NCBI GenBank assembly: GCA_052390615.1
Contig: JBQTGT010000017.1
Coordinates: 70,536-134,535 of the forward strand
Source of the DNA: Actinomycetota bacterium
GTDB taxonomy: Bacteria > Actinomycetota > Acidimicrobiia > IMCC26256 > PALSA-610
Direction: 5' to 3'
DNA: 64,000 nucleotides
Part shown: positions 8,571-37,778 of the stretch, in pieces
Numbering within the stretch: the first letter of the stretch is position 1
How the letters are laid out: every line of letters starts with the position of its first letter
Program-made: the position numbers and the translations under genes
Notes under the pieces: generated by a model
What the model was told of the DNA's origin: nothing
Seen by the model: the letters and a program-made list of their open reading frames with translations, nothing else
Database searches by the model: none

Positions 8571-10850
8571 CTATTCGCTCTTGAGGGCGATGGCGATCTC
8601 GGCGCGGGCGGCGGTGTCGTCAGGGGGCGCGAGGGCGGGGATCTCGAACGTCACATGGTGCAGTGTCGCCGAGAATGGGAACGGCGGCTCGTACTCTCCG
8701 ACGACGGGGAACCCGCGGTCGTAGCCAATCGTCAGGCCCGCGCCGCCAATCTGCCAGCGAAATGGCAGCGTGTGCGCGACCTCGGCGCGCGCGACCTCGG
8801 CGCCGTCGACACACAACGTCCCGACGCCGCAGTCGTACGCGAACGACAGTTCGTGCGCGCCGGGTCCGATCGCGAGCGGTCCGTCGATCACTTGCGGGTG
8901 GCCGAACGCGTTGAACACGTGCACGAGCCGACCGTCCTTGACGTAGAACGCGATGCCGTTCGTCCAGTTGCCGAGCGCGTACAGGATCCCGCCGAGCGGC
9001 GAACCGTTCGCACCGACGTCAACCGCGGCCGTCGCGACGAACCCCGCGCCCAACGGCGGCATCAAGTCCTCTTGCACCGGTCCGCCTCCGGGCCGGTACA
9101 CCGTGCGATGGCGGGGCGCGTAGCGAGGCCGGAACATCGCCGATACCCGCCCGATGAACGTGTCGTCGAGTGGCAGTACGCCGTTGCGCCCGGCCTCGGT
9201 CCACCACCGGTCGACGAGCAGGCGCACGCGTTCGGGCTCGGCGGCCGCGAGGTCGTTGGCTTCCGAGAAGTCCTCGTCGATGTGAAAGAGCAACCATCGG
9301 TCTTCGCCGAAGTCGCCCCTGCTGCCTTCGACGAGTTCTTGTTCGACCGGGAGCTGCCGGCCGACATGGTCGGTGGTCGCCTTCCAACCGTCGTGGAAGA
9401 TCGCGCGGCTCCCCATCAGCTCGAAATACTGCGTGTCGCGCGGGGCGGGCACCGCCGCGTCCGCGAACGTCGCGGTCAGCGACGCGCCGTCGACACGAAG
9501 CTGTTCGACGCCGTCGACAATCGGCGCGGGCTCGATCCGCGCCGCGTCGAGAATCGTGGGCGTGAGATCGACCGCGTGGCAGAACTGGCTGCGCAGCTCG
9601 CCGCGCGCGTCGATGCCGTTCGGCCAGTGGACGACGAGCGGCGTGCGCGTCCCGCCGAGCCAGGTGTAGCGCTTCCACAGGCGCAGCGGTGTGTTGCCGG
9701 CCCACGCCCAACCCCACGCGTAGTGGTTGTACGCGCGAAACCCACCGAGCTCGTCAATCTTCGCGATGTTCTCGGCGAGGTCCTCGTGCAGGCCATGGAC
9801 GAACCGGTGCTCGTTCACCGAGCCGTACGGCCCGCCCTCGGCGCTCGTGCCGTTGTCGGAGATGAGCAACACGAGCGTGTCGTCGAGCACATCAGTGATG
9901 CGAAGGAAGTCGACGATGCGCCCGATCTGGCGGTCGGTGTGGGTCAGAAACCCGGCGAAGACCTCCATCATCCGCGCGTACACGCGGCGTTCGTCGGCCG
10001 CGAGTGAGTTCCACTCCTGCACCCATGACGGACGCGCGGTGAGCGTCGTTTCGGCCGGCACGACGCCGCTCGCGATCTGACGTTCGAAGACGCGTGCTCG
10101 CCACGAGTCCCAGCCGTCGTCGAAGGCGCCGCGATAGGGCTCGATCCATTCGGCGCCGACCTGGTGCGGCGCGTGCATTGCGCCCGTCGCGAAGTACAGA
10201 AAGAACGGCTTGCCCGGCGTCGACTGTTGTTGGTCCTGCACCATGCGAATGGTGCGATCGGCGAGATCTTCGGTGAGGTGGTAGCCGTCGGCCGCCGAAC
10301 GGGACGGCTCGACAGAGTGGTTGTCACATACCAGTTCGGGCGTGTACTGGTTGGTGTCGCCGCCGAGGAAGCCGTAGTAGCGCTCGAACCCCATCCCGAG
10401 CGGCCAGCGGTCGAACGGCCCCGACGCGCCCCACTCGTCGCGGGGCGCGAGATGCCACTTACCGACGGCGTAGGTCGAATAACCCGCGTCGCGCAAGTGG
10501 CGCGCCACCGTCGCGGCCGAGCGCGGCATCCGGCTGTGATACCCGGGAAACCTCACCGCGACTTCGGGGAGCAACCCCATCCCGACGGCATGGTGGTTGC
10601 GGCCGGTGAGCAGCGCCGCGCGCGTCGGCGAGCACATCGCCGTGACGTGAAAGCGGTTGTACCGCAACCCGCCCGCCGCCAGCGCGTCGATGTTCGGCGT
10701 CGCGATGTCGGAACCGAAGCAACCGAGCTGGCCGAAGCCGAGATCGTCGAGCACGACCACCATCACGTTCGGACCCGACGTGCGCCCGCGCGACGGCTGT
10801 GGGAACGGCGTCGATTCGGCGATTGTCGGTCCGATGTGCACGCGACTCAC
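8571..10850 (-). CDS. Arylsulfatase (Cys-type, formylglycine-dependent) with C-terminal extra domain
   Basis: 759 aa. ..VVVLDDLGFGQLGCFGS.. and the CSPTRAALLTGR signature. Confidence 0.9.
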   Translation of the reverse strand: MSRVHIGPTIAESTPFPQPSRGRTSGPNVMVVVLDDLGFGQLGCFGSDIATPNIDALAAGGLRYNRFHVTAMCSPTRAALLTGRNHHAVGMGLLPEVAVRFPGYHSRMPRSAATVARHLRDAGYSTYAVGKWHLAPRDEWGASGPFDRWPLGMGFERYYGFLGGDTNQYTPELVCDNHSVEPSRSAADGYHLTEDLADRTIRMVQDQQQSTPGKPFFLYFATGAMHAPHQVGAEWIEPYRGAFDDGWDSWRARVFERQIASGVVPAETTLTARPSWVQEWNSLAADERRVYARMMEVFAGFLTHTDRQIGRIVDFLRITDVLDDTLVLLISDNGTSAEGGPYGSVNEHRFVHGLHEDLAENIAKIDELGGFRAYNHYAWGWAWAGNTPLRLWKRYTWLGGTRTPLVVHWPNGIDARGELRSQFCHAVDLTPTILDAARIEPAPIVDGVEQLRVDGASLTATFADAAVPAPRDTQYFELMGSRAIFHDGWKATTDHVGRQLPVEQELVEGSRGDFGEDRWLLFHIDEDFSEANDLAAAEPERVRLLVDRWWTEAGRNGVLPLDDTFIGRVSAMFRPRYAPRHRTVYRPGGGPVQEDLMPPLGAGFVATAAVDVGANGSPLGGILYALGNWTNGIAFYVKDGRLVHVFNAFGHPQVIDGPLAIGPGAHELSFAYDCGVGTLCVDGAEVARAEVAHTLPFRWQIGGAGLTIGYDRGFPVVGEYEPPFPFSATLHHVTFEIPALAPPDDTAARAEIAIALKSE

Positions 10851-12043
10851 GCGGTCACGCCGATCGGGACTTCGAGCCAGCCCCGAACCGTGCTGGTGTG
10901 CAGACGGACGGCCCGATCCAGGTCGACCTCCCAGCGTGGGAATCGCACGAGCGTTTCCTCCAGTCCGATGCGTCCCTCGAGCCGCGCCAGCGCGGCACCG
11001 AGGCAGAAGTGGATGCCGTAGCCGAACGACAGGTGGTGGTCGATGCGACGGCGGATGTCGAAGCGATCGGGATCGGCGAACTTACGCTCGTCGCGCCCGG
11101 CGGCGCCGGTCAGCAACAGCACCTTCGCGTCGACCGGAATCGTCTGTCCGTGCAGCTCGACCGCGCGCGTCGTCCATCGGCCCTGCACTGGCGACGGTGC
11201 CTCGTAGCGCAACAACTCCTCGATCGCGTTCGGGATCAGCGCGTGGTCGGCGGCGACCTCGGATCTCTGGTCGGGAGACGCGCCGAGGACCACCGCCGCG
11301 TTTCCAAGGAGGCGCGCAACCGTCTCGGTGCCGGCCGCGATCAGCAGGTTGGCGAACGAGGTGGCTTCGTGCACGGTCAGGTTGCGGGTGCTCCCGGCGT
11401 CATCCGTGATCTCGGCCTGTACCAGCGCGGTCAGCATGTCATCGCGCGGCACCTTCCGCCGATCCTCGAGTTGTTGGCCCATGTACTCGAAGATGGCGAC
11501 CTGGGCGCGCAGCGACGTGTCGTTGATCATGCCGACACCCGGCTCGATGTGGAACATCTGATCGATGTGGTGTCGCGCGAATGCTCGATCGGACTCGGGA
11601 ACGCCGAGCAGCAACGAAATCACTTCGGACGGCAGTCGCGCACCGAAGTCCTGGACATAGTCGAACGTGTCCTCGCCCGCGACGGCATCGAACAGCTCCG
11701 CGCAGAGCTCCCGGATCCGCGATTCGAGCTGTGCGACCCGCCGGGGTGTGAACGCGCGCGACACGAGCGCGCGCAGCTGCGCGTGCTCGGGCGGGTCCAT
11801 GAAGATGATCGAGCTCCCAAAGTCACCGACGTCGGCATGCATGATTTCGAGCACCGTTCCGTGGGCCGAGCTGAACGTGACGGGGTCTCGGTGCGCGGCC
11901 TCGACGTCGTCGAATCGGCTCAGCGCATAGAAGTCATACCGCTCGTTGCGGTACACGGGTGCGTCATCGCGCAGCCGTCGCCAGACCGGATGGGGATCGC
12001 GGTCGATATCCGTGTCGAAGGGGTCCCAGGCGAGATCGGACAT
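10847..12043 (-). CDS. Cytochrome P450
   Basis: 398 aa. Heme-binding FGYGIHFCLGAALAR and EELLRYE. 4-nt overlap with the sulfatase start. Confidence 0.9.
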   Translation of the reverse strand: MSDLAWDPFDTDIDRDPHPVWRRLRDDAPVYRNERYDFYALSRFDDVEAAHRDPVTFSSAHGTVLEIMHADVGDFGSSIIFMDPPEHAQLRALVSRAFTPRRVAQLESRIRELCAELFDAVAGEDTFDYVQDFGARLPSEVISLLLGVPESDRAFARHHIDQMFHIEPGVGMINDTSLRAQVAIFEYMGQQLEDRRKVPRDDMLTALVQAEITDDAGSTRNLTVHEATSFANLLIAAGTETVARLLGNAAVVLGASPDQRSEVAADHALIPNAIEELLRYEAPSPVQGRWTTRAVELHGQTIPVDAKVLLLTGAAGRDERKFADPDRFDIRRRIDHHLSFGYGIHFCLGAALARLEGRIGLEETLVRFPRWEVDLDRAVRLHTSTVRGWLEVPIGVTA

Positions 12044-22147: not shown

Positions 22148-24913
22148 CTAGCCGCCCAAACGCAGGGGCGTGCTCTCCGAAACGGTCCAGGGCCCGGTGA
22201 GGTTGATGTAGGCCTGGTCGACCGAATCGCGCGGCATGGCACCGGCGGCGCCCCGAACCAGACCCTCCATGTCCTTCACCGACTGCGTCGTCACCATGGG
22301 GGCGGGCAGCTCGTTCTTTTCAGTGCCCCGCGCATTGTCGGTCGTCTTGGCTGCGCCGCGGTACTCGACCCCTGCCACATATACCAGCTCGTCGGCGGTA
22401 TCGACGTTCAGCCCGTTGCCCGGCTTGCGGAACGTCGAGTTCGCGTAGCTGCCGTACCCGAAGATCGAGTTGACGACGTTGCCAGACGCGTCGTTCTCGT
22501 AGCGCACGCCCCAGAGGACCCAGTCCTCGACGATGTTGTTCCGGAAGTCGACGAAGGCTTCGTTGGCGAGCGGGCCACGGACCCACTGCTTCTGCACCCA
22601 GTTGTGGTGCAGCGTCACGTTGTCGACGCCCTTGTACTTGATGAAGATGGACCGGGTGTTGCCGGCGAAGAACGAGTACTGGACGGTGACGTTCTTCGCG
22701 CCGTAGCCGATCGAGATTCCGTCGTCCTTGGCGCCCGTCGACGAGATGTGGCTGAACACGATGTTCTTCGCACCCTCGCCTTGAGCGCGGACGTTGTCGC
22801 CGCCGTTGCGGAACCGCATGTCACGCACGATCACGTTCTGGCTCCCGACGGCGAACGTCGCACTCTGCGAGAAGGCCAACGACGGCCCGCCGACGAGCGT
22901 GACGCCGTTGCCTTCGACCGTGACGTTGTTCGCCGTCAAGTTGAGCGGCGAGTTCACCGTGATCGGACCACGGGTCGTGAAGACGATCCGAGACTTCTTG
23001 CCTGCATTGCTGTTCGTCTTGGCCTTCGCGAGCGCCGCCTTGACCGCGGCTTCGGTCGGCGTGCACACGATGATCAGCTCGCCACCGTTGCCACCGGAGG
23101 TGACGCCGAAGCCTTGCAGGGGCTCGCTCGAGGGCGGCGCGGGTGCGTTCGTGCACGACCCCGGGCCGGATGGCGTCGTACTTCCGGGCGTCGTCGTCGT
23201 CGGCGTCGTGTCGCCCGGTTCGCGCACGGTGATCTGGACGGTGGCCGTGTCGGTCGCCGTGCCGTCGCTCACCGTGACCCGTGCGCTGTAGGTGCCGGCA
23301 CGACCGTAGGTGTGGGTCGCGCGGGCTCCAGTCGTCGGCGCCCCGGGCCCGACGGGCAGCATCGGACGGTAGGCCGGCACCGTGCACTTCCGGCGCTGGA
23401 GTTCCAACTTGGCTTCGCCCACGTTCTCGGCCGTCCTGTTGGCGTCAGTTCGACCCGGGAAGCCGCCGAGGCGCGCTTGCTCCTCGCTCTCGCGGCTGTA
23501 GAGGTATGCGAACGCGTACCGCGCGCAGCCGTCGAGGTCGTGCACGTCGGCGTCGTTGTACAGGTAGAGCGCGCCGAGGTCGTGGCCGATGCGCATCAGG
23601 AACAAGCGTGAGATCTGGTCGATACGCCGAAAGTTGCTGTCGGTGAACGGCGCGTTCGAAGTAATCCCGGTCAGCGGCGCGAACTTGGCCGCCGCCGCGA
23701 GGTACATCGGGACCGACGACCGCTTGTTCGCGTCGCCGCCCTTCTCGCGTACCTCGTCGGCGGCGCGGTACGCGACGCGCGCGTCTGTGACGGCTTGGCC
23801 GGCGTCGGCCGCGGCGGCCGTACCGGCAGTACCGTCGCCGAAGTCGAACGTGTACGTGAGCGGGTCGCGGTCGGCGTCCGCAGACGTAGACGCGTCGAGC
23901 GTGACCTGGAGCGGCCCGACACCGCTCGCCGGTGTCGCCGCGATGCGGGCGTCGGGCGCGTGGTTGCCGTTGGGGCCGGTCGTCGGTGGCGTCGTGTTCG
24001 GAGGACGCGTCGTCGGCGGCGTCGAGCTGCCGCCCGCGGCACGGAGGATCGCAATTCCGCCTGGTCCCGAACCGGCGTTGAGTTGGGTGACCCAGCTTGT
24101 CTGCGCCGCGAAGCCGTTTCCTGTGTTGCGGAACGCCTTCTTGAGCTGGGCACCGGTATTGATGACGAGCAGGTCGGGACGGCCGTTGCCGTCGACGTCG
24201 GCCGCACCGGGTATGGCGTCGCTGCCGACATCGGGCGTGTCCCACTGCGGCGCGCGGGTGAAGGGCGCGGTTGCGTTCCCGGTACCGAGGAATGCGGAGA
24301 TGCTCCCGTCGCGCAGTCCGACGACGAGATCGGTCTTGCCGTCGCGGTTGAAGTCGGCAGTGGCGGGGCGAGGGTACGAACCGTTCAGGTTCTGGTTCCA
24401 CTGCGGCTTCTTGGCCCACGCGGGTGCGTTCCGTGTGCCGACGTTCTCGAGCGCGACGACGTCGAACTGACCGGCGGAGACGCCGACGAGCAGGTCCTGG
24501 TCGCCGTCGCGGTCGAGGTCGGCCGTCGCGGGTGCGGGGACTGAATCGAAGTCGAACTTCGGGTCCCAGTTGCTGGCGGGTGCCCAGCGCGGCGCGCCGT
24601 CGCTGCCGTCGTTGCGGAACGCGCGTACGTATCCACCGCTCTCACCGACGAGAGCATCGAGGTCGCCGTCGCCGTCGAGGTCGGCCAGCGTCGGGTGCGC
24701 GTTCGAGCCCGCGTCCGGAATGTCCATGGCCGAGTCGCGCGCCCAGTCGCCGCCGATGTGCGCGCTGCGGTACGCCCAGCTCTTGCCGTCGGAGCGACCG
24801 AGGTACGCGATCAGTGCGTCGTCGGCGGCTGCCCCCGCGGGCACCAAGCTCGCGAACGTGCTGAACGCCAACACTGCGCCGAGCGCAGCTCCGCTACCCC
24901 GCCGTACGTCCAT
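22148..24913 (-). CDS. Secreted multidomain protein: FG-GAP/VCBS repeats, PKD domain with a large insert, pectate-lyase-like beta-helix (paralog 1)
   Basis: Trimmed to MDVRRGSGAALGAVLAFSTFASLVPAGAAA. Repeated ..DLDGDGDLDALVG.. / ..DLDRDGDQDLLVG.. motifs. ..YTFDFGDG.. and ..THTYGRAGTYSARVTVSDG... C-terminal ..NTRSIFIKYKGVDNVTLHHNW..RGPLANEAFVDFRNNIVEDW... Confidence 0.85.
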   Translation of the reverse strand: MDVRRGSGAALGAVLAFSTFASLVPAGAAADDALIAYLGRSDGKSWAYRSAHIGGDWARDSAMDIPDAGSNAHPTLADLDGDGDLDALVGESGGYVRAFRNDGSDGAPRWAPASNWDPKFDFDSVPAPATADLDRDGDQDLLVGVSAGQFDVVALENVGTRNAPAWAKKPQWNQNLNGSYPRPATADFNRDGKTDLVVGLRDGSISAFLGTGNATAPFTRAPQWDTPDVGSDAIPGAADVDGNGRPDLLVINTGAQLKKAFRNTGNGFAAQTSWVTQLNAGSGPGGIAILRAAGGSSTPPTTRPPNTTPPTTGPNGNHAPDARIAATPASGVGPLQVTLDASTSADADRDPLTYTFDFGDGTAGTAAAADAGQAVTDARVAYRAADEVREKGGDANKRSSVPMYLAAAAKFAPLTGITSNAPFTDSNFRRIDQISRLFLMRIGHDLGALYLYNDADVHDLDGCARYAFAYLYSRESEEQARLGGFPGRTDANRTAENVGEAKLELQRRKCTVPAYRPMLPVGPGAPTTGARATHTYGRAGTYSARVTVSDGTATDTATVQITVREPGDTTPTTTTPGSTTPSGPGSCTNAPAPPSSEPLQGFGVTSGGNGGELIIVCTPTEAAVKAALAKAKTNSNAGKKSRIVFTTRGPITVNSPLNLTANNVTVEGNGVTLVGGPSLAFSQSATFAVGSQNVIVRDMRFRNGGDNVRAQGEGAKNIVFSHISSTGAKDDGISIGYGAKNVTVQYSFFAGNTRSIFIKYKGVDNVTLHHNWVQKQWVRGPLANEAFVDFRNNIVEDWVLWGVRYENDASGNVVNSIFGYGSYANSTFRKPGNGLNVDTADELVYVAGVEYRGAAKTTDNARGTEKNELPAPMVTTQSVKDMEGLVRGAAGAMPRDSVDQAYINLTGPWTVSESTPLRLGG

Positions 24914-24992
24914 GTACGGGCCCCCTGTCCGTGTTTTCGCCCACGGCATGTATATCGCCCGGTCGGCGGGGGCCGATATGGGTCTTTTGACG

Positions 24993-27791
24993 CTACGGCA
25001 CGAGGCGCAGCGGGTTCCCGTCGCCCGTGTGCCACTCACTGTGGCGGTTGATGTACGTTGCGTCGATTGCATCGCGGGGCAGTGCCCCGGCGCCGCCCCG
25101 CACCAGACCCTCCATCTGGGCAACCGATTGCGTCGTGACACCGGCCGCGGGCAGTTCGCGCGCTTCGGTTCCCCGCGCCGAGTTGGCGGCCTTGGCCGCG
25201 CCGCGGTATTCGATGCCGGTCACGTACACGCGCGCCTCGTTGGTCTTGACGTTGAGTGCGTTGGCCGGCTTGCGGAACCTCTCGTTCGCATAGTCGCTGT
25301 ACCCGAAGATCGAGTTGACCACGTTGCCGGACGAGCCGTCTTCGTACCGAACGCCCCACATCGTCCAGTCCTCGACGATGTTGTTGCGGAAGTCGACGAA
25401 CGCGCCGTTCGCCAGGGGACCGCGAATCCACTGCTTCATCACCCACGTGTGGTGAATCGAGACGTTGGTCACGCCGTCGTACTTGATGAAGATCGACCGC
25501 GTGTTCCCCGCGAGAAACGAGTACTGCACGGTGACGTCGTGCGCGCCGTACCCGATCGATATCCCGTCGTCATACGCGCCCGTCGAGGAGATGTGGCTGA
25601 ACACGACGTGATGCGCACCGGTCCCCTGGGCGCGCAGATTGTCGCCGCCGTTGCGCACCCGCATGTCGCGCACGATGACATCGTGGCTCCGAACGTCGAG
25701 CACGGCCGCGGCCGAGCGCGAGAGCGACGGACCGGCGATCAGGGTGACGCCGTTCCCTTCGATTGTCAGGTTGTTCGCTTCGACCTTGAGGGTGGAGTTC
25801 ACCACGATCGGACCCATGACGGCGAAGACGACCCGCGACTTCTTTCCCGCCTTGCTGTTGACCTTCGCCTTCGCGAGCGCGGCCTTGACTGCGTCGCTCG
25901 TCGGCGCGGCCACTGTGACAACCTCCCCGCCCGCGCCACCGGCGGTCGCGCCGAAACCCTCGAGCGGCTCGCTCCCCGTTGAGCCGGGTGGCGCAGCCGG
26001 CGGCGCGACCGTGCCGACCACGACCGTCGTCGTCGCTGTCGTCGAGTGCACCCCCGCGCGCATGGTCACCGTCACGGTGTACGTCCCGGCCTTCGCGTAC
26101 GTGTGGGTTGTCAAAGGTCCGTTCGACGGTTCCGCCGCGCCCGGCTTCTTGAACATCGGTTGGTACGCGGGAATCGCGCACTTGTACTTGGAGAGCTTCG
26201 CCTTGGCTTCGTCACGGTTCTCCGACGTCCCGTTCGCGCTCGCCAGTGATCCGAACCCGCCGAGCTCGGCTTGCTTCATGCCGTCGAGGCTGTACAGAAA
26301 CGCCTTCTCGTAGCGCGCGCACCCGTCGAGACCGTGGACCGAAGCGCTGTTGTACAGGTAGAGCGCGCCGAGGTCGTGGCCGAGCTTCATCAGGTAGTAG
26401 CGCGACACCTCGTCAATGCGCGTGAACTTCCCGCTCTTCGCGCTGAACGGCGACGTCGCCGTCACTGCCGTGAGCGCATCGAACTGGTACGCGGCGTCGA
26501 GATACATGACGATCGACGCGCCCTTGTGACCGTCCTCGCGTACGTCGTCGGCACGATCGTACGCATCGCGAGCGGACCTGATCGCGGCGGCCGGATCGGC
26601 GGGCACGGGGGGTAGCGGTGCGCTCGCGGTGCCGTCGCCGAAGTCGAACGCGTACGAGAGCGCGTCGCCGTCGGGATCGGAGGACGCCGACGCATCGACG
26701 GTGACGTTGATCGGCGCGGCCCCGCCCGGCGGCGTGACGGTCACGACCGCGATTGGCGGCCGGTTCCCGGGCGGCACGGTGGTCGGAGGCGGTGGCGCGG
26801 TCGTGGTTGTCGTGGTGGCGGGAGCCGTTGTGGTCGTCGGCGCCACGGTGGTGGTCGTCGTCGAAGTCGGCGGGGAGGTCGTGGGGGAAGTCGTCGGGGA
26901 AGTCGCGGGGGAAGTCGTCGGCGACGAGGGGGCGCGTCGCCACGCGACCGCGATGCCGCCCGGGCCGGAACCGGCGTCCAGCGGTACCAGCCACGACGGT
27001 TCCGCGACAAACGCCGCACCCGCATTGCGGAACGCGCCGACGAGCTGGGCACCGCTGTCGACAACGAGTGCGTCGGCGCGGCCGTCGCCGTCGAGCGGCA
27101 CGAGCGCGACCGCGACGTTGGTGCCAAGGACTGGCAGGTCCCATGCGGGCGTGAGCACGAACGGATTCGGCGCGGCGCCGGTGTTGAGATAGCCGATTGG
27201 GTTCCCGGAGCGACCGACCAACAGGTCGGCGCGGCCGTCGCCGTCCAGATCGCCCGCGCCCGGCCGCGCGAAGCCGCCGAGATCACCGAGGCTCCACGCA
27301 GGTTGGTCGACCCATACTGGTGCCGACACGCTGCCGGTGTTCTGCAGCGCGTCGACGACCCCGGTCGAGTTGCCGACGAGCGCGTCGAGGTCACCGTCGC
27401 CGTCGACGTCGATGAGGGCCGGCGCGGCCTGCGTCCCGAAGTCGATTCCCGGCTCCCACGCCGGTGTTGCGCTCCATGCCGGCGCGGCCGCGCTGCCGGT
27501 GTCGCGGTACGCGCGCACGAGACCCCCGGCTTCTCCGATCAGCGCGTCGAGGTCCCCGTCGTCGTCGAGGTCGCCGAAGGTCGGGAACGCGGACGAGCCG
27601 ATATCGGGGAGGCCGAGTGCAGGCGAGGCCGTCCACGCTCCGCCTGGGCCCGCGCTCGTGAACGCGAGGCTGTTCCCGGAGGACATCCCCACGTAGACGA
27701 CGAGGGAGGATCCCGGTGATGGGCTGGATTCAAGCGCACCACCGGCGAGTGGCAGCGCGACGAGTACCGCCACGAGGGATCCGACTTGCAT
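24993..27791 (-). CDS. Secreted multidomain protein, paralog 2 (same architecture)
   Basis: Signal ..RHRGRRMQVGSLVAVLVALPLAGGA, with a possible GTG start at 27827. FG-GAP motifs, long Pro/Thr linker, ..YAFDFGDG.. and ..THTYAKAGTYTVTVT.., and the same beta-helix motifs as paralog 1. Confidence 0.85.
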   Translation of the reverse strand: MQVGSLVAVLVALPLAGGALESSPSPGSSLVVYVGMSSGNSLAFTSAGPGGAWTASPALGLPDIGSSAFPTFGDLDDDGDLDALIGEAGGLVRAYRDTGSAAAPAWSATPAWEPGIDFGTQAAPALIDVDGDGDLDALVGNSTGVVDALQNTGSVSAPVWVDQPAWSLGDLGGFARPGAGDLDGDGRADLLVGRSGNPIGYLNTGAAPNPFVLTPAWDLPVLGTNVAVALVPLDGDGRADALVVDSGAQLVGAFRNAGAAFVAEPSWLVPLDAGSGPGGIAVAWRRAPSSPTTSPATSPTTSPTTSPPTSTTTTTVAPTTTTAPATTTTTTAPPPPTTVPPGNRPPIAVVTVTPPGGAAPINVTVDASASSDPDGDALSYAFDFGDGTASAPLPPVPADPAAAIRSARDAYDRADDVREDGHKGASIVMYLDAAYQFDALTAVTATSPFSAKSGKFTRIDEVSRYYLMKLGHDLGALYLYNSASVHGLDGCARYEKAFLYSLDGMKQAELGGFGSLASANGTSENRDEAKAKLSKYKCAIPAYQPMFKKPGAAEPSNGPLTTHTYAKAGTYTVTVTMRAGVHSTTATTTVVVGTVAPPAAPPGSTGSEPLEGFGATAGGAGGEVVTVAAPTSDAVKAALAKAKVNSKAGKKSRVVFAVMGPIVVNSTLKVEANNLTIEGNGVTLIAGPSLSRSAAAVLDVRSHDVIVRDMRVRNGGDNLRAQGTGAHHVVFSHISSTGAYDDGISIGYGAHDVTVQYSFLAGNTRSIFIKYDGVTNVSIHHTWVMKQWIRGPLANGAFVDFRNNIVEDWTMWGVRYEDGSSGNVVNSIFGYSDYANERFRKPANALNVKTNEARVYVTGIEYRGAAKAANSARGTEARELPAAGVTTQSVAQMEGLVRGGAGALPRDAIDATYINRHSEWHTGDGNPLRLVP
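26864..26923. repeat. Five tandem 12-nt units (gaagtcgNSggg-like) encoding the TSP[TA] linker of paralog 2
   Basis: Units gaagtcggcggg/gaggtcgtgggg/gaagtcgtcggg/gaagtcgcgggg/gaagtcgtcggc read directly. The minus strand encodes ..TTSPATSPTTSPTTSPPTS... Confidence 0.7.
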
Positions 27792-28122
27792 TCGCCGTCC
27801 GCGATGACGAGCGCGAGCGCCAGGCACAAAGTCCCCCCATCTCGTGCCTCGCAGCTCGGTCCCGCTGTGGTTATCGTCACATCGCGTCGCGATGCTTGAA
27901 TGGCGCGTGGTCTGGATCACCGACATGGGTGTCCCCATCTCGGCTGGGACCTCGCCGAGGCGCTCGTCGTCGAAGACGAGCTCGTCCGCCCGGGACACGG
28001 CTGGCCGTTCGACTGTGCCGGACGCGCGCAGAAACGCGCTCGAGGGCCCGGTTCCGACGGTCCGCATCGACAGCGTCGGTGACGACGCGCGCGTCTGCGC
28101 GCAGAACTCGTGACCGCGGCCG

Positions 28123-29376
28123 TCAGTTCGGCGTGAACACCACCGGTAAGTGCGATACGGTCGTCACGAGCGAGTTCGGCGCGCGCTCGGCCGAGGCATC
28201 GGGTCCCACCCGCAGATCGGGCAGTCGCGTGAACAGCTCCTCCAGGAGGATCCGAATCTCGGTCCGAGCCAGGTTGGCGCCCAGACAGAAATGCGGCCCG
28301 GTGCCGAACGCGAGATGCAGGTTAGGAGCTCGATCGACGCGGAACTCGTGCGGATCGTCGAACACGTCCGCATCACGATTTGCCGACGGATAGACGTTCA
28401 GGAGCACGTCGCCCTCGCGCAGCGCCCGACCGCGGAGTTCGGTCGCGGCCGTGACCGTGCGAGAAAAGCTGATCACCGGCGAGACGTAGCGCAGGATCTC
28501 TTCGGTCGCGCTGTTCACGAGCGAGAGGTCGGCGACAAGCCGCGCGCGTTGGTCCGGAAAGGTCGAAAGCGCTTCGATTCCGCCCGACAGCGCGTTGCGT
28601 GTCGTCTCGTTCCCGGCAACAAGCAGGAGCACGCAGAACGCGAGCACGTGGTCGCCTTCCAGGCCCATGTCGGTGACCGCGCCGGATTGCAGCTGCTCCT
28701 GGAGCCGATCCTCGTTGAATTCGATCTCGCCCGCGTCGGCCGAAGACAGCAACACCGAGATGAGGTCGTCGCGCGGGTGACGGCGGCGTTCCTCGACGAG
28801 CACCATCAGGTATGTGACGTAGTCGGCCCACGCTTCGCCGGCGGCCACGATGCGCGGGTCCTCACCCTCGGCACCTTCGGCGCTCATCATCGTGTCCGAC
28901 CAGCGGCCCAACTGTTCGCGGTCCGCGGGCGGCAAGCCGAGCAGCTCGGCGATGACGATCAGCGGCAGCGGCCGGGCAATGTCGACGACGAAATCACACT
29001 CACCGCGCCCGGCAACCGCGTCGACCAGCGCGCGGGCGACTTCGCGGATGTGGTCGAACATTTCGTTGATTCGCGACGGCGTGAACCCTCGGCTGACGAG
29101 CTTGCGGTGGCGGGCGTGCTCGGGGTCGTCCATCGACACGATCGACAGGTCACCACCGCCGCCACCCTTCGGTCGCACGCCTTGTGCACTCGAGAACAGC
29201 TCCGGATGTCGTTCGACGTGCGCGACGTCGTCGTACTTGGAAACGACCCAGATTCCGTTGCGGTCGTCCCAGTGCACGGGATCGTTGGCCCGCAGCCAAT
29301 CGAACACGTCATGGGCCACGCCCCGCACGTAGAGCGTGGGGTCGAGCGCGTCGGGCTCGAATGCAGACGTCGTCAT
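28123..29376 (-). CDS. Cytochrome P450
   Basis: Trimmed to MTTSAFEPDALDPTLY... AGNETTRN, EEILRY, heme motif FGTGPHFCLGANLAR. Confidence 0.9.
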   Translation of the reverse strand: MTTSAFEPDALDPTLYVRGVAHDVFDWLRANDPVHWDDRNGIWVVSKYDDVAHVERHPELFSSAQGVRPKGGGGGDLSIVSMDDPEHARHRKLVSRGFTPSRINEMFDHIREVARALVDAVAGRGECDFVVDIARPLPLIVIAELLGLPPADREQLGRWSDTMMSAEGAEGEDPRIVAAGEAWADYVTYLMVLVEERRRHPRDDLISVLLSSADAGEIEFNEDRLQEQLQSGAVTDMGLEGDHVLAFCVLLLVAGNETTRNALSGGIEALSTFPDQRARLVADLSLVNSATEEILRYVSPVISFSRTVTAATELRGRALREGDVLLNVYPSANRDADVFDDPHEFRVDRAPNLHLAFGTGPHFCLGANLARTEIRILLEELFTRLPDLRVGPDASAERAPNSLVTTVSHLPVVFTPN

Positions 29377-29954
29377 CCGTGATCCTTGTCGAGTCGAGCG
29401 AAGACCTGGCCCAGCTCGCGCGCACTCGCCGCGAGCGCGCGCCGCCGGCCGTCGGGTTGCGGGAGGTGTTCGAGCATCACGCCGTAGAGCGCGTGGCGCA
29501 GCGCGCGAACGACGGCCCGGTCGTGCAATACCGGCGCGTCCGGCAGCAGCTGGCGAATCCACGTCGCCAACGCGCTCTCGAACGCAGCGCTCGTTTCGAG
29601 CAAGGGTTGGAGGACATCGTCGTCGCCGTGGATTGCCTCGGCGAGCAGTGTGCGCCAGAGGTCGTCGTCCGCGGCCATGCCGATGAACAGGTGGTCGACC
29701 AACGCGCCCAGGCGCTCGGCGACCGTGCCGGGGAGCCCTTCGGGGAAGGGGACCGTGAACAGCTCGCCCGCCAGCCGGTGCGCGATCGCGGCCTGGCAGA
29801 GGTCGCGCTTGGACGAGAAATAGTGGTAGAGCGTGGCGACGTTGCAGCCGCACCGCTGCGCGACAGCCCGCATGCTGGTGCCGCGCGCGCCGTGCTGGGC
29901 CATCAGGCCGAGGGTGGCGTCGAGGATGCGCGCCGGCTGATCCACACCCGGCAC
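29373..29954 (-). CDS. TetR family transcriptional regulator
   Basis: 193 aa. ..ILDATLGLMAQHGARGTSMRAVAQRCGCNVATLYHYFSSKRDL... ATGA overlap with the P450. Confidence 0.85.
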   Translation of the reverse strand: MPGVDQPARILDATLGLMAQHGARGTSMRAVAQRCGCNVATLYHYFSSKRDLCQAAIAHRLAGELFTVPFPEGLPGTVAERLGALVDHLFIGMAADDDLWRTLLAEAIHGDDDVLQPLLETSAAFESALATWIRQLLPDAPVLHDRAVVRALRHALYGVMLEHLPQPDGRRRALAASARELGQVFARLDKDHG

Positions 29955-30035: not shown

Positions 30036-30761
30036 GTGGAGGAATTTCCTTCGATCGCGGTGACGGTCGACGCCGTCGTGTGCACCGTCGCGGGCGGGCG
30101 GCTCGCGGTGCTGCTCGTGCAGCGCGCCAACGACCCGTTCCGCGGCGGCTGGGCGCTGCCCGGCGGCTTCGTCGAGCCCGACGAGGATCTCGACGTCGCG
30201 GCGCGCCGCGAGCTCGCCGAGGAAACGGGCGTGTCGATCGGCGGCGAAATGTCAGCGCCACACGCGGGCGGTCTCGGACACATCGAACAGCTCCGCACTT
30301 ACGGCGCGCAAGGTCGCGATCCACGCGGGCGCACGGTGTCGGTCGCGTACGTGGGATTCACTGCCCGTACCGACGTCGTCGCCGGTTCCGACGCGGCCGA
30401 CTCGCGCTTTTGGGCGGTCGATGACCTCTCGATCCCGTCGATCGGCACGGCGGATGGCGTTCCGCTCGCGTTCGACCATGCGCGGATCGTTGCCGACGGT
30501 GTCGAGCGGGCGCGTTCCAAGCTCGAATACACGACGCTGGCGACCGCATTCCTCGACGAGCCGTTCACACTCGGCGAACTGCGCCGCGTGTACGAAGCGG
30601 TGTGGGGCGATGCGCTGCACGAAGGGAACTTTCGCCGCAAAGTGTTGTCGACGCAGGGCTTCGTCGAGCCCACTGGCGAAACCGCGCCGACTGAGGGCCG
30701 CCCGGCCGCGCTGTACCGCCGTGGCGCGGCGACGCGACTGCACCCGCCGATCCTGCGCTGA
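30036..30761 (+). CDS. NrtR-like protein: Nudix hydrolase domain plus C-terminal winged-helix domain
   Basis: Intact Nudix box GGFVEPDEDLDVAARRELAEETGV. C-terminal ..YTTLATAFLDEPFTLGELRRVYEAVWG..GNFRRKV.. is typical of NrtR wHTH. Confidence 0.75.
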   Translation: MEEFPSIAVTVDAVVCTVAGGRLAVLLVQRANDPFRGGWALPGGFVEPDEDLDVAARRELAEETGVSIGGEMSAPHAGGLGHIEQLRTYGAQGRDPRGRTVSVAYVGFTARTDVVAGSDAADSRFWAVDDLSIPSIGTADGVPLAFDHARIVADGVERARSKLEYTTLATAFLDEPFTLGELRRVYEAVWGDALHEGNFRRKVLSTQGFVEPTGETAPTEGRPAALYRRGAATRLHPPILR

Positions 30762-31633
30762 TGCGTTCCGGGGCCTTTCCGGGTTCGTTCGATCCACCGA
30801 CGATCGCGCACCTCGCGATCGCACACGCAGCGGTGGACGCCGCGCGCCTCGATCGTCTCGACTTCGTCCTGTCGCGTGTCGCCCTCGGCAAGGAGAACCG
30901 GGGCGAGGCCGACAGCCGCGCCGCGACCCTCGAACAGCTCGCGACAACACGGCCGTGGCTCGGCGTACGCATCACCGACGACCAGCTCATCGTCGACATC
31001 GCGCGCGGCTACGACGTCGTCGTGATGGGCGCCGACAAGTGGACAGAAGTGCGGGATCCCGCGTGGTACGGGTCCGCGGCGGCCCGGGACGACGCGCTCG
31101 CTCGGCTGCCACGCGTTCTCGTCGTGCCCCGGTCGGGAATCGCGATCGAGGCGGCGGAGGTGCTCGACCTCGCCGATGACTTGGATCATGTCTCTTCGAC
31201 GGCCGCGCGCGCGGGCGCGCAGGTCCTGGTGGCGCCCGAGCTGCGGTCCCGGTTGCTCGTCGACGTCATGAACGTCATCGGGAGCCGGCCCGACGGCTGG
31301 TGGAAGGACCGGGACGGCGCCGCGCGCCGGTTGATCCGCTCGCTCCAAGCGCGCGCCCGTCGCACAGGCGAACGGATTGCGGCCGTACTCGACGGCCGCG
31401 CCCTGCCGGACCTTCCCGAAGGGGTCCACGACGGCGTGCTCGTGGCGTACGCGACGCGCCGCGGCCGCGATGCGGCCGACGACCGCATCGTTTCGGAGGT
31501 CGAACGCGACCGCGACCCTGCGTCGTTGACGGTTGTGACGTCGGATAGAAGGCTGCGCGAACGGGTGCAGGCGCTGGGCGCACAGGTCGCGCCAGCCAGC
31601 TCCGTCATCGATCGGGGATCGGCATCCCGGTAA
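30761..31633 (+). CDS. Fusion protein: NadD/NMNAT-like nucleotidyltransferase plus YacP/NYN-like domain
   Basis: N-terminal GSFDPPTIAHL (HxGH-type) and VSSTAAR (ISSTxxR-type) motifs. C-terminal ..VMNVIGSRPDGWW..VLDG..DAADDRIV..LTVVTSDRRLRERV..GAQV.. is NYN_YacP-like. TGATG overlap with the Nudix gene. Confidence 0.7.
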   Translation: MRSGAFPGSFDPPTIAHLAIAHAAVDAARLDRLDFVLSRVALGKENRGEADSRAATLEQLATTRPWLGVRITDDQLIVDIARGYDVVVMGADKWTEVRDPAWYGSAAARDDALARLPRVLVVPRSGIAIEAAEVLDLADDLDHVSSTAARAGAQVLVAPELRSRLLVDVMNVIGSRPDGWWKDRDGAARRLIRSLQARARRTGERIAAVLDGRALPDLPEGVHDGVLVAYATRRGRDAADDRIVSEVERDRDPASLTVVTSDRRLRERVQALGAQVAPASSVIDRGSASR

Positions 31634-33808: not shown

Positions 33809-35410
33809 CTACGCCGGGCGCTCGACTGCGAGGATCGTGCGGTCGCGCGGGAGGCTGGCGTAGAGATCGTCGACGAGGTCGTCACGGATCGCCTTGTACT
33901 CAGGGTCGTCCCAGCGGTTCACCCACTGGTGCGGGTCCTCGGCGACGTTGTACAGCTCGCCTTCGCTACCGCCGTACGCGATCGGACTGGTTGGACCGAT
34001 GCCACCGCCGAACATGCCCGTTGTCGCGAAGAACTTCTCGAGGCCGTTGGGCGTGCCGACCGTCGACGGCTCATACGCAGTGCAGAGCCATCCGTCGCGA
34101 TAGATGGAGCGCATGTGCATCCCGTAGCCGGGGAACTGCGAGTCCCATTCGCACAGCACCCGTTCGCGACCCGAGGCGGGCGCCACCGGGAGCGCCGCGC
34201 CCTGCATCCAATCCGCGACGGGCACACCGGCGATCTCGCAGAACGTCGGCGCGAGGTCGAGCTGGCCGACCGGTTCGGGGACGACGGCGGGCGTCACCCC
34301 GGCCGAAGGTGCGGGTCGCCAGACCATTGGCAGTCGCATCAGCGCGTCGACGTGGAATGGACCCTTGAAGAGCAATCCGAAGTCGCCCTGGAGCTCCCCG
34401 TGGTCGGTCGTGAACACCACGTCGGTGTCGCTTTCCCAGCCGCGCTCCGCGACACGGCGTAACACGCGGCCGCACGCTTCGTCGATCAACTCGTTCATGA
34501 CGTGAGTCATCGCGTTGATCTCGCGCAGGCTGTCGGCGCTCACTCCTTGCGGCCGGTACGAGCCCGGTCCGCCTTCCACGTTGATGAACTTTCCCTGCCA
34601 CAGTGCGAGCCAGTGCGCGGGTTTTGTCTCGAGCACCCGCTCGATTGCCTCCGGCGAACCAGGATGACCGGCCGGAAGGTCGAGGTCGCGCCAGTTGCAA
34701 CGGTGCAACTCCGACGCGGGCGGATCCCACGGGTGGTGTGGGTCGGGGAACGACATCCACACGAACCAGTCGGCGTCGTCGTGAAGCGAGTCGAGATACG
34801 CGATCGTGCGATCGGCAATCCAGTCAGTGTGGTACCAGTCGCGCGGGATCGGGTTGATGCGCGTCTCGGGTGCGCCGGTCTCACCGCCCGGTTCGGCCGA
34901 CAGCAGCGGCGAGAATCCGCGCGTTGCCTCGATGCCGTGCGTGTCGATGAGCCAACGCCCGTAGTGTTGCAGTGCTCGCTCGGCGACGGACGGCACGTGC
35001 ATCGCCAGTTCCGCGTGTTCGAAGCCGCGGTACGGCCCGGTCAGCCCGCGCTCGGACATGAAGTTCTCGGTCCACCGCAACTCGAGGTCGAAGCCCGGCT
35101 CGAAGTGGGCTTTGCCGAGCAACGCGGTGTTGTACCCCGCGTGGTCGCGGAGGTAGGCCGCGATGCTTGGGGCGTCCGCCGGCAGCGGCACACCGTTGGC
35201 GACGACGCCGTGCGTACGGACGTATTGCCCGGTGAGCATCGTCGAGCGCGCCGGCATGCAGACCGTGTTCTGGTTGTACGCGCGTTCGTAGCGAACACCA
35301 TTGGCGGCCAACTGGTCGACAACTGGCGTGCGGGCGATCGCACCGCCATTGCAACCGAGCGCGTCATACCGCTGTTGGTCGGTCGTGATGAACAGGATCT
35401 TGCGTCCCAT
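33809..35410 (-). CDS. Sulfatase (Cys-type)
   Basis: ..KILFITTDQQRYDALGCNG.. and the CMPARSTMLTGQ signature. Start at MGRKILF is approximate. Confidence 0.85.
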   Translation of the reverse strand: MGRKILFITTDQQRYDALGCNGGAIARTPVVDQLAANGVRYERAYNQNTVCMPARSTMLTGQYVRTHGVVANGVPLPADAPSIAAYLRDHAGYNTALLGKAHFEPGFDLELRWTENFMSERGLTGPYRGFEHAELAMHVPSVAERALQHYGRWLIDTHGIEATRGFSPLLSAEPGGETGAPETRINPIPRDWYHTDWIADRTIAYLDSLHDDADWFVWMSFPDPHHPWDPPASELHRCNWRDLDLPAGHPGSPEAIERVLETKPAHWLALWQGKFINVEGGPGSYRPQGVSADSLREINAMTHVMNELIDEACGRVLRRVAERGWESDTDVVFTTDHGELQGDFGLLFKGPFHVDALMRLPMVWRPAPSAGVTPAVVPEPVGQLDLAPTFCEIAGVPVADWMQGAALPVAPASGRERVLCEWDSQFPGYGMHMRSIYRDGWLCTAYEPSTVGTPNGLEKFFATTGMFGGGIGPTSPIAYGGSEGELYNVAEDPHQWVNRWDDPEYKAIRDDLVDDLYASLPRDRTILAVERPA

Positions 35411-35736
35411 CAGGGCAACCGGTCGATCCGCGGACTGCACGCGACGACGATCGTCCGCTCCAGCCCGGCCTCGCGGTGACCGTGCGTTCGCTCGTATGCG
35501 TCTGACGTCGTCATCTCGACGAACGCCTTGCGACTCGGATACTGAACGAGGACCACTGAGTCCCAGTCCTTGGTCGCGTCCCCGATGAGCACCTGCTCAG
35601 CCCGGCCTTGCCAGATCACCTTGCCGCCGCGCGCCTCGACCATCTGCACGACCGCATCTCCATACTTCTGATACTCCTCGCCACCGGTGGCGGCGCCGTC
35701 GTCGGTCCGAGTCTTGAACTTCAACAGGTTCAGCAT
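35410..35736 (-). CDS. DUF1330 domain protein
   Basis: 108 aa. MLNLLKFK..YQKYGDAVVQMVEARGGKVIWQG..VVLVQYPSRKAFVEM... Confidence 0.75.
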   Translation of the reverse strand: MLNLLKFKTRTDDGAATGGEEYQKYGDAVVQMVEARGGKVIWQGRAEQVLIGDATKDWDSVVLVQYPSRKAFVEMTTSDAYERTHGHREAGLERTIVVACSPRIDRLP

Positions 35737-36482: not shown

Positions 36483-37778
36483 ATGTCACGCTGCCCGCCG
36501 GGAGGAATCGGGCGTAAGTTGCGGCGCGTGGCGACGACCGAAGACAGCTATCTCCCCCCGATGCTCAACCCGTTCGAGCCCGACTTCTTCAAGGATCCGT
36601 ACTCGCAGTACCGGGCCGTACGCGAACAAGATCCGGTACACCTCAGCCCGATCGGCGCGTGGGCGTTGTTCCGGTACGAGGACGTGCACCGCGTGCTGCG
36701 CGATCCGCACCTCAGCGTCGAGGAACGCAACACGACCCTGACTCCGCCGCCGCTTCCCCCCGACCTCCAGGCCCAGTTGGAAGTTCGCGAGGCGCGCGGC
36801 AGCCACACGATGCTCAACCTCGACCCGCCCGATCACCACCGGCTGCGGCGGCTCGTCTCGAAAGTGTTCACGCCCCGCACGGTCGAGAAGCTACGCCCGC
36901 GTGTGCGCCAACTCGTCGACGAGTGTCTCGAAGACGTCGCGGCGCGCGGCACCGGCGAGATCGACGTGATCGGCGACCTCGCGTTCCCGCTGCCGTTCAC
37001 GGTGATCTCCGAGATGCTGGGCATTCCTGAGTTCGTCGACCGCGCCGAGCTGCGCGAGTGGTCGGGCGCTATCGTCAAGCAGTTCGATCCCATCCTTACC
37101 GAGGACGAGATCCGTGCCGCGTTCTCCGCCGGCGACCGCTTCTGGGAACTGATGAACGAGGTCATCGAGTGGAAGCGTGCCCACCCCGGCGACGACCTCC
37201 TCACCGGGATGATCGCCGCCGAAGACGATGGCGACCGTTTGTCACTGGAAGAACTTATCGAGCAGAGCCTGCTGTTGTACGTCGCCGGCCACGAGACGAC
37301 GGTTAACCTTATTGGCAACGGCACCTTGGCGCTGTGTCGCCATCGCGACCAACTCGAGCAGCTGGTGCGTGACCCTGCGCTCGACATCAACGCGATCGAC
37401 GAGTTGCTGCGGTACGACAGCCCGGTACAGATGTCGCGCCGGATCACGTTGGCCGAGGACTACGAGATCGGCGGCAAGCACATGGAAGCCGGCACGATGT
37501 TGATGACGTGCCTCGGTTCTGCGAACCGCGACCCGCAGAAGTGGGGCGCGGACGCCGATCGGCTCGATCTTTCCCGCGCTGACGCGGCCCAGCACGTCTC
37601 GTTCGGCGGTGGGTTCCATTCGTGCCTCGGTGCGCACCTTGCGCGCGTCGAAGGTCAAGTGGCGATCGGAACACTCGTGCGCCGCTTCCCGAACCTTGCG
37701 CTCGCGACGGACCAGGTCGAATGGAACGGTCGCATCGTGTTGCGCGGCCTCGTTCGCTTGCCGCTGACCCTCAACTGA
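36483..37778 (+). CDS. Cytochrome P450
   Basis: AGHETTVN, DELLRYDSPV, heme motif FGGGFHSCLGAHLAR. The true start may be GTG 36528 or ATG 36561. Confidence 0.9.
   Translation: MSRCPPGGIGRKLRRVATTEDSYLPPMLNPFEPDFFKDPYSQYRAVREQDPVHLSPIGAWALFRYEDVHRVLRDPHLSVEERNTTLTPPPLPPDLQAQLEVREARGSHTMLNLDPPDHHRLRRLVSKVFTPRTVEKLRPRVRQLVDECLEDVAARGTGEIDVIGDLAFPLPFTVISEMLGIPEFVDRAELREWSGAIVKQFDPILTEDEIRAAFSAGDRFWELMNEVIEWKRAHPGDDLLTGMIAAEDDGDRLSLEELIEQSLLLYVAGHETTVNLIGNGTLALCRHRDQLEQLVRDPALDINAIDELLRYDSPVQMSRRITLAEDYEIGGKHMEAGTMLMTCLGSANRDPQKWGADADRLDLSRADAAQHVSFGGGFHSCLGAHLARVEGQVAIGTLVRRFPNLALATDQVEWNGRIVLRGLVRLPLTLN

Follow-up and report, generated by a model that had tools for sequence, protein, structure and literature searches.

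We analyzed a stretch of 64,000 nucleotides from an Actinomycetota bacterium (assembly GCA_052390615.1, contig JBQTGT010000017.1, positions 70,536–134,535 of the forward strand; hereafter the window, whose own numbering is used throughout), in which two adjacent genes, A and B, encode large modular proteins that end in a right-handed β-helix related to polysaccharide lyases of family 1 (PL1). The GC content of the window is about 68%. The two genes lie in a pair of minus-strand open reading frames (ORFs), 22148–25141 and 24993–28067. Gene A (22148–24913, minus strand, stop codon 22148–22150) encodes a 921-residue protein deposited at NCBI as MGQ0824533.1, and gene B (24993–27827, minus strand, stop codon 24993–24995) a protein of about 944 residues when translated from the GTG at 27827, deposited as MGQ0824534.1; both entries, on a contig of 136.9 kb, are named 'MAG: FG-GAP-like repeat-containing protein [Actinomycetota bacterium]'. 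Since the GC content at third codon positions is of the coding type in both ORFs (0.85–0.86) and the architecture is kept in 23 full-length homologue clusters, A and B are not chance ORFs. Nor are they decayed pseudogene copies, a possibility ruled out by the fact that both ORFs are intact and conserved. Scanning the proteins against NCBIfam gave no meaningful match, scanning positions 20–31 kb against Rfam gave nothing, and the promoter and terminator scan gave no signal exceeding the shuffled expectation.

The start of gene A is most plausibly the ATG at 24913, which is preceded by a Shine–Dalgarno-like run (ACAGGGGG) and gives the N-terminus MDVRRGSG. For gene B, the GTG at 27827 has the sequence GGGGGGA upstream and yields a charged n-region, RHRGRR, ahead of the hydrophobic core of the signal peptide. 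The start deposited at NCBI, the GTG at 27773 (926 residues), is probably too short, because it removes this n-region and leaves a signal peptide without charge. The ATG at 27791, which also restores RHRGRR, is a further candidate.

A and B are paralogs over their entire length, the N-terminal halves being more diverged yet clearly homologous. The two proteins are 58% identical over their C-terminal 611 amino acids (BLASTP), in agreement with the initial annotation of the locus, which was made from the sequence and described a tandem pair of paralogs on the same strand. That annotation also reported that the DNA of the C-terminal parts still aligns while the N-terminal parts have diverged, and a codon-level comparison puts figures on this gradient: amino-acid and nucleotide identities are 48 and 60% in the propeller, 52 and 65% in the helical domain and 69 and 74% in the β-helix. 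The tandem pair is found in the same synteny (DUF179, AraC/DJ-1, TetR–P450) in two further soil metagenome contigs, one from JGI (3300056388), where one partner has 933 residues, and one from forest soil in ENA (ERZ1760698). The duplication is therefore old, as had been surmised, and the pair has been retained in this actinobacterial lineage. The copies subsequently diverged in an asymmetric manner, since B-type copies are 61–62% identical between genomes, whereas the protein at the A position of the syntenic forest-soil contig (P0006, L082:1809–4703) is just 46% identical to that of gene A. In P0006, the conserved turn of the β-helix reads W-S-R-C-P-H. Note that the β-helix of B is as close to that of A (69% identity) as to that of its own ortholog (68%), a pattern that some gene conversion, or else stronger constraint, could produce.

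The domain layout was defined on an AlphaFold2 (AF2) model of the gene A protein, built with an alignment of 23 family sequences, whose mean predicted local distance difference test score (pLDDT) is 81.5, with values of about 85–95 for the domains. From the N-terminus to the C-terminus, and on the minus strand throughout, gene A encodes (i) a Sec-like signal peptide (residues 1–30, 24824–24913; MDVRRGSGAALGAVLAFSTFASLVPAGAAA followed by DD; pLDDT <50); (ii) an FG-GAP/VCBS calcium-blade propeller (residues 31–293, 24035–24823; Pfam FG-GAP_3, E = 2.8e-19; pLDDT ~90), with strands between residues 33 and 292; (iii) a first, Pro/Thr-rich linker (residues 294–317, 23963–24034; pLDDT <50), the length of which varies in the family alignment; (iv) the N-terminal half of a PKD domain (residues 318–365, 23819–23962), which has four strands and ends with FDFGDG; (v) a helical bundle (residues 366–530, 23324–23818), with helices and a β-hairpin at residues 371–507; (vi) the C-terminal half of the PKD domain (residues 531–566, 23216–23323), with three strands at residues 531–564 and the motif HTYxxxGxYxxxVTVSDG; (vii) a second linker (residues 568–600); and (viii) the PL1-like right-handed β-helix (residues 599–921, 22151–23119), delineated by phmmer, profile and Foldseek searches and modeled over residues 601–906 with a pLDDT of about 90. 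Gene B follows the same plan on the minus strand, with an FG-GAP propeller at residues ~41–296 (26940–27707; Pfam FG-GAP_3, E = 3.3e-15), a helical bundle at residues ~403–565 (26133–26621) between PKD halves 355–402 and 566–604, and a PL1-like β-helix at residues 619–944 (24996–25973).

The FG-GAP_3 and FG-GAP models of Pfam, as well as PKD and PKD_4, exceed their gathering scores in both A and B; the bit scores are 69.9 for FG-GAP_3 and 56.4 for FG-GAP, against cutoffs of 26.9 and 22.1, respectively. The propeller of gene A comprises 20 predicted strands in five repeats (AF2/DSSP), four of which carry a DxDxDGxxD loop, so that the calcium-binding FG-GAP/VCBS repeats first read from the sequence are borne out. 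The N-terminal strands seem to close the fifth blade. Foldseek matches the propeller to ITFG2, integrin α4 and CRTAC1, and a Pfam FG-GAP match together with Dx[DN]xDG loops is what it has in common with calcium-blade propellers in general (integrin α, ITFG2, CRTAC1, PL11 YesW and tachylectin-2-like lectins). The 'calcium blades' of FG-GAP/VCBS propellers have been described previously, the integrin α propeller having seven blades and that of PL11 eight (PMC3123361), against five repeats here. A link to carbohydrate recognition is typical of VCBS/FG-GAP propellers, which are akin to tachylectin-2 and to PL11 lyases (PMC9218822). By analogy with this literature, the propeller of A and B would most likely be a Ca2+-stabilized carbohydrate-recognition or attachment module.

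The PKD domain is split. Residues 317–367 of gene A correspond to positions 1–50 of the 85 positions of the PKD_4 profile and residues 522–563 to positions 37–80 of the 80 positions of the PKD profile, with a gap of about 155–165 residues in between; thus, although the scores exceed the thresholds, there is no contiguous PKD or PKD_4 domain of about 85 residues. The helical bundle fills this gap, sitting in the loop that joins the FDFGDG element of the PKD fold to the HTY element. The PKD elements and the linkers recognized in the initial annotation are there, but its layout, a PKD-like domain followed by a second linker, overlooked the helical domain of about 165 residues that interrupts the PKD domain. 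We found no description of a nested PKD domain of this kind. Likewise, we found no paper on a combination of FG-GAP, pectate lyase and PKD domains, and the papers that deal with 'polysaccharide lyase' and 'FG-GAP' do not report such a fusion. In A and B, the PKD domain would act as a spacer.

The bundle of gene A consists of five long helices and a β-hairpin, and displays the motif IGHDLGAxYLY and two invariant cysteines, Cys463 and Cys510. Folded alone by AF2, it reaches a pLDDT of 93.5 and a predicted template modeling (pTM) score of 0.88. The counterparts of the two cysteines in gene B, C503 and C550, are the sole cysteines of the protein; judging from the sequence, this pair would fit a disulfide bond in an exported protein. 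The bundle gave no match in Pfam, even at E = 10, nothing significant among PDB sequences (best E = 0.087, an unrelated acetyltransferase) and no Foldseek match in the PDB with E <0.001 (best E = 0.08, designed repeat proteins of the tetratricopeptide repeat type). An exhaustive search of 1.84 billion representative proteins with a profile made from 20 inserts returned only 26 matches, and every match inspected was a member or a fragment of this β-helix family. Two relatives, P0126 and P0262, consist of a signal peptide, the bundle, a linker and the β-helix, with no PKD strands. Because it occurs without the PKD domain in these proteins and, among the matches inspected, solely alongside this β-helix, the bundle is a separate, autonomous domain that travels with this particular β-helix. 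It would be an accessory module, possibly involved in substrate selection or in gating of the groove. Kinship with inhibitor or PRO domains of the pectin methylesterase inhibitor (PMEI) type finds no support: there is no Pfam match up to E = 10 and no PMEI structure among the top 50 Foldseek matches in the PDB.

The assignment of the C-terminal β-helix relies on both sequence and fold. With the β-helix of gene A alone as a query, phmmer retrieved VexL (6fi2, E = 5e-7) and PfPL1 (9buj, E = 4e-6); a profile of 21 family members matched VexL (6e-21), PfPL1 (7e-12), Xanthomonas pectate lyase II (4e-5) and Jun a 1 (1.5e-4). When the full model was compared with the PDB by Foldseek, the top 15 matches were all PL1 pectate lyases or VexL, with E-values of about 1e-8 to 1e-6 and target-normalized TM scores of 0.50–0.73. 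VexL is the Vi-antigen lyase of Achromobacter denitrificans and belongs to PL1 subfamily 13 (PMC6003464), while PfPL1 belongs to subfamily PL1_2 (PMC11229556). The β-helix of A and B is a divergent PL1-type lyase domain, closest to VexL (PL1_13), and the resemblance to pectate lyases noticed at the outset is confirmed by these matches. The accompanying statement that the proteins do not correspond to a described enzyme class was overstated as far as this domain is concerned, since it is a divergent relative of PL1; it holds for the combination of domains and for the helical insert, neither of which has been described, and we found no well-characterized family in which this architecture is the common form.

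The β-helix also exists as a stand-alone protein. About 130 clusters of such homologues were found, mostly of 330–420 residues and without Pfam annotation, a few being labeled 'pectate lyase' by JGI. They are 45–64% identical to the present domain over the whole β-helix and contain the same invariant residues. They come from the same phyla and at times from the same genomes as the fused proteins, but they are devoid of the propeller and the PKD domain and, for the most part, of the helical bundle.

Residues D706, D730, D731, R754, K759, R779, P781 and R791 (gene A numbering) are invariant in the 23 fused proteins (alignment A1), and equally so in a 21-sequence alignment (A4) that includes stand-alone homologues at 39–53% identity. 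The candidate base is R779 (codon 22577–22579), the counterpart of which in gene B is R802 (codon 25422–25424). In the HMMER alignments, R779 falls on Arg232 of VexL, the proposed base of this enzyme, the R232A and R232K mutants of which are inactive (PMC6003464); in Xanthomonas pectate lyase II, it falls on the arginine of the R-V-P-L motif. D171 of VexL is the counterpart of D730, and two Asp residues at Ca2+-ligand positions of Xanthomonas pectate lyase II are those of D706 and D730. The invariant basic residues are R700, R702, R709, R754, K759, K775, R779 and R791, and there is an invariant His pair, H769/H770. The conserved turn that contains R779 reads HH-x8-W-x-R-G-P.

One may ask whether such a set of residues could serve another chemistry, namely C5-epimerization of the AlgG/AlgE type, glycoside hydrolysis or de-esterification. 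AlgG/AlgE epimerases share the proton-abstraction step with lyases. Weak matches to the generic Beta_helix model of Pfam, which falls just under its gathering score, and to NosD/CASH models would be in keeping with this idea, as would the alteration of the classical Ca2+ site and of the second Arg; moreover, the invariant pair H769/H770, H722 and the DDG motif could serve other mechanisms. However, PL1 enzymes account for all of the best matches in sequence and in fold, to the exclusion of epimerases, GH28 and CE8 proteins (Pectinesterase gives E = 0.07), and the invariant R-x-P turn with its base Arg is a hallmark of lyases. We therefore regard a chemistry other than lyase chemistry as improbable.

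VexL is the best sequence match. Its right-handed β-helix has the same fold (Foldseek E = 5e-8), and the N-terminal motif G-[FY]-G-x-x-T-x-G-G, the HHN rung and the R-x-P turn align in VexL and in the family, both of which lack an Arg at the last position of RxPxxR as well as part of the classical Ca2+ site. There are also differences: VexL, about 400 residues long, is periplasmic, has a single domain and is encoded in a capsule locus, whereas A and B possess in addition a propeller, a PKD domain and the helical bundle and do not lie in a capsule locus; the loop that contains Lys195 in VexL is 10 residues shorter in the A/B family; and the A/B family, unlike VexL, keeps two Asp residues at Ca2+-ligand positions. 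Classical PL1 enzymes (PelC, BsPel, Xanthomonas pectate lyase II and the Bacillus clausii enzyme 7xks) and PfPL1 share with A and B the fold and the base Arg of the R-x-P-L turn. Their identity to A and B is, however, only 13–19%; A and B have substitutions at the third Ca2+ ligand and at the second Arg, and no enzyme of this group combines its lyase domain with FG-GAP repeats, a split PKD domain and a helical bundle.

Signal-peptide-like N-termini are present in A, in B and in about 20 of the 23 family members, with a positive n-region, a hydrophobic core of at least 12 residues and an A-x-A-like site. That of gene A has a positive n-region, a core with a Kyte–Doolittle (KD) hydropathy of 2.06 and an A-x-A site. 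The initial annotation had noted an Arg-Arg pair and left open whether export is of the Tat (twin-arginine translocation) or Sec type. The N-termini are indeed signal-peptide-like, but the arginine pairs lie in the contexts VRRGSGA (gene A) and GRRMQVG (gene B), are confined to the actinobacterial subset of the family, and fit even a loose Tat pattern in only two of the 23 members. As the S/T-R-R-x-F-L-K-type consensus is absent after the arginines and most members have no RR at all, we discarded the Tat route, and the sequences make Sec export of A and B more likely. The stand-alone homologues also begin with a putative signal peptide or, in some cases, with an N-terminus that looks lipoprotein-like on reading the sequence, a canonical lipobox being found in one of the latter only.

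Altogether, these data suggest that A and B are Sec-exported extracellular modular lyase-like enzymes, in which a PL1-type β-helix would cleave an acidic polysaccharide by β-elimination; we estimate the probability of this interpretation at roughly 55%. After export, the β-helix would bind the acidic polysaccharide in a basic groove, and R779 (R802 in B) would take the C5 proton from a uronic-acid residue. R754 and K759 would neutralize the carboxylate of this residue, possibly together with a Ca2+ ion bound by D706 and D730. β-Elimination of the 4-O-glycosidic bond would follow.

Several observations weigh against this interpretation. To begin with, the clade of lyase-like proteins to which A and B belong has no characterized member. 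The Pfam model of the domain, PF00544 (Pectate_lyase_4), scores 19.7 bits with the full-length gene A protein and 23.5 bits with the domain alone, for a cutoff of 24; it does not match gene B and matches only two of the 21 family members. At the level of residues, the Asp of the vWiDH motif is replaced by Ser721, the third classical Ca2+ ligand by an invariant serine, S734, and the placement of R754, the Lys equivalent, varies between alignments. With regard to the Ca2+ site, catalysis by VexL and PfPL1 is proposed to be metal-independent (PMC6003464, PMC11229556). The catalytic turn had already raised a doubt in the initial annotation, in which lyase chemistry was considered uncertain because the sequence RGPLAN lacks the last Arg of RxPxxR. 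This position is occupied by N784 in gene A and by Ser in most of the family, so that the turn reads R-G-P-L-A-[NS], as compared to R-N-P-R-A-Q in VexL, where the last residue is Gln237. Since VexL, a proven lyase, does not have an Arg there either, N784 is in itself no argument against lyase chemistry, and the first Arg of the turn is the invariant candidate base. Two positions earlier, however, Leu782 takes the place of Arg235, a residue essential for VexL activity (PMC6003464). Finally, neither in the window nor in relatives are genes for uronate catabolism, sugar transport or polysaccharide biosynthesis linked to the pair.

Some of these observations would also be explained if A and B were non-catalytic adhesins or surface proteins, the lyase fold being a degenerate scaffold that binds a polysaccharide or other surfaces. 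FG-GAP and PKD modules are typical of such proteins; canonical PL1 residues are replaced (L782 for Arg235 of VexL, S734, S721), Pectate_lyase_4 remains under threshold, the gene context is not catabolic, and one of the profile matches, Jun a 1, is a PL1 protein best known as an allergen. Yet fused and stand-alone homologues, at about 40–50% identity, all keep the base Arg and a group of charged residues placed on consecutive rungs, which is more conservation than simple binding usually needs. Furthermore, most homologues are small stand-alone secreted β-helices of 330–420 residues without adhesin modules, and the C-terminal sequence of the proteins contains no cell-wall anchor. Because the R-x-P turn is invariant and the best matches are exclusively PL1 lyases, both a role as adhesins and a chemistry other than β-elimination are disfavored, and we hold the former, like the latter, to be unlikely.

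The full architecture is rare: it was found in 23 clusters among 5.8 billion proteins and, in a set of 185,579 species-representative genomes, at about 24 loci, every one of which lies in a metagenome-assembled genome. The host bins are uncultured Actinomycetes, Candidatus Binatia, Polyangiaceae, Thermodesulfobacteriota and a 'delta proteobacterium', and the host samples look like soil surveys, judging from their names. Several host genomes contain two dispersed copies or additional copies limited to the β-helix. In the window, the pair is preceded by a P450 gene and a TetR gene and followed by a convergent AlgH-like DUF179 gene and by a gene for an AraC/DJ-1 regulator; in other lineages, there is a single gene, located among housekeeping genes. 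Clustering the neighbors of 36 related loci revealed no recurrent partner related to polysaccharides. The only recurrent neighbors, an AMP-dependent ligase and an aldehyde dehydrogenase, are limited to the Binatia/delta-proteobacterial clade; we read them as lineage synteny rather than as functional partners.

This context bears on the biological role of the putative lyases. They could be depolymerases that, like VexL or AlgL, trim the capsule or exopolysaccharide of the producer itself instead of degrading foreign polymers as food. The closest characterized relative, VexL, is a depolymerase encoded in a capsule locus, some stand-alone homologues have the lipoprotein-like N-termini mentioned above, and the genes have housekeeping neighbors, not a catabolic locus around them. 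On the other hand, no gene for capsule or exopolysaccharide biosynthesis or export adjoins the pair, here or in the relatives, and this hypothesis is a sub-case of the one that we favor, with the same chemistry and only a different biological role; we give it little credence. A role tied to a capsule locus, as for VexL, was rejected for A and B: the pair does not lie in a capsule or exopolysaccharide locus, its neighbors are the P450, TetR, DUF179 and AraC/DJ-1 genes, and the relatives are surrounded by housekeeping genes.

Other genes of the window deserve mention. It contains three sulfatase genes, at 8571–10850 (minus strand), 33809–35440 (minus strand) and 43318–44838 (plus strand), with Pfam E-values of 9e-62, 3e-30 and 6e-47, respectively. 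P450/TetR pairs and genes for AMP-dependent ligases are scattered among them, and no sulfatase gene adjoins the lyase-like pair; the sulfatases may hint at the use of sulfated substrates. There are at least three cytochrome P450 genes (10847–12043, minus strand; 28123–29370, minus strand; 36483–37778, plus strand). The P450 gene immediately upstream of gene B forms a pair with the gene of a TetR regulator (29373–29954), and the syntenic JGI contig has two TetR–P450 pairs at this place. Further on, region 30036–31633 (plus strand) encodes a NUDIX/NrtR-type regulator followed by a protein with cytidylyltransferase-like and YacP-like NYN domains; in the related JGI contig, the NrtR gene adjoins nicotinate phosphoribosyltransferase (NAPRTase) and isochorismatase genes, that is, a nicotinamide adenine dinucleotide (NAD) salvage context.

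The A/B pair is an uncharacterized and rare architectural variant of a known enzyme type, the PL1-like lyases, not a new kind of system, and it overturns no existing concept. As for its origin, the pair arose by an old tandem duplication and was retained with asymmetric divergence. A bolder proposal, which we put forward tentatively and consider rather doubtful, is that the β-helix defines a new PL1 subfamily or sister family acting on an acidic substrate other than pectin, such as a bacterial or soil exopolysaccharide, that the bundle is a new gating or auto-inhibiting module and that the propeller is a new minimal FG-GAP lectin. If gating or auto-inhibition held, the plant pectin methylesterases with PMEI-like PRO domains would offer a functional analogue of the bundle.

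If β-elimination of an acidic polysaccharide is indeed what these proteins perform, they would represent an uncharacterized branch of PL1, found only in uncultured soil bacteria of the Actinomycetota, Binatia, Polyangiaceae and Thermodesulfobacteriota, and would add to PL1 a further substrate specificity. The pair would also contribute a helical domain that is predicted with confidence and resembles nothing in Pfam or the PDB, a clear example of a domain nested within a PKD domain, and an unusually small FG-GAP propeller of five repeats. In practical terms, it would provide a basis for better annotation of 'FG-GAP-like repeat-containing proteins' and of the ~130 clusters of stand-alone β-helices, as well as a new depolymerase candidate for acidic polysaccharides.

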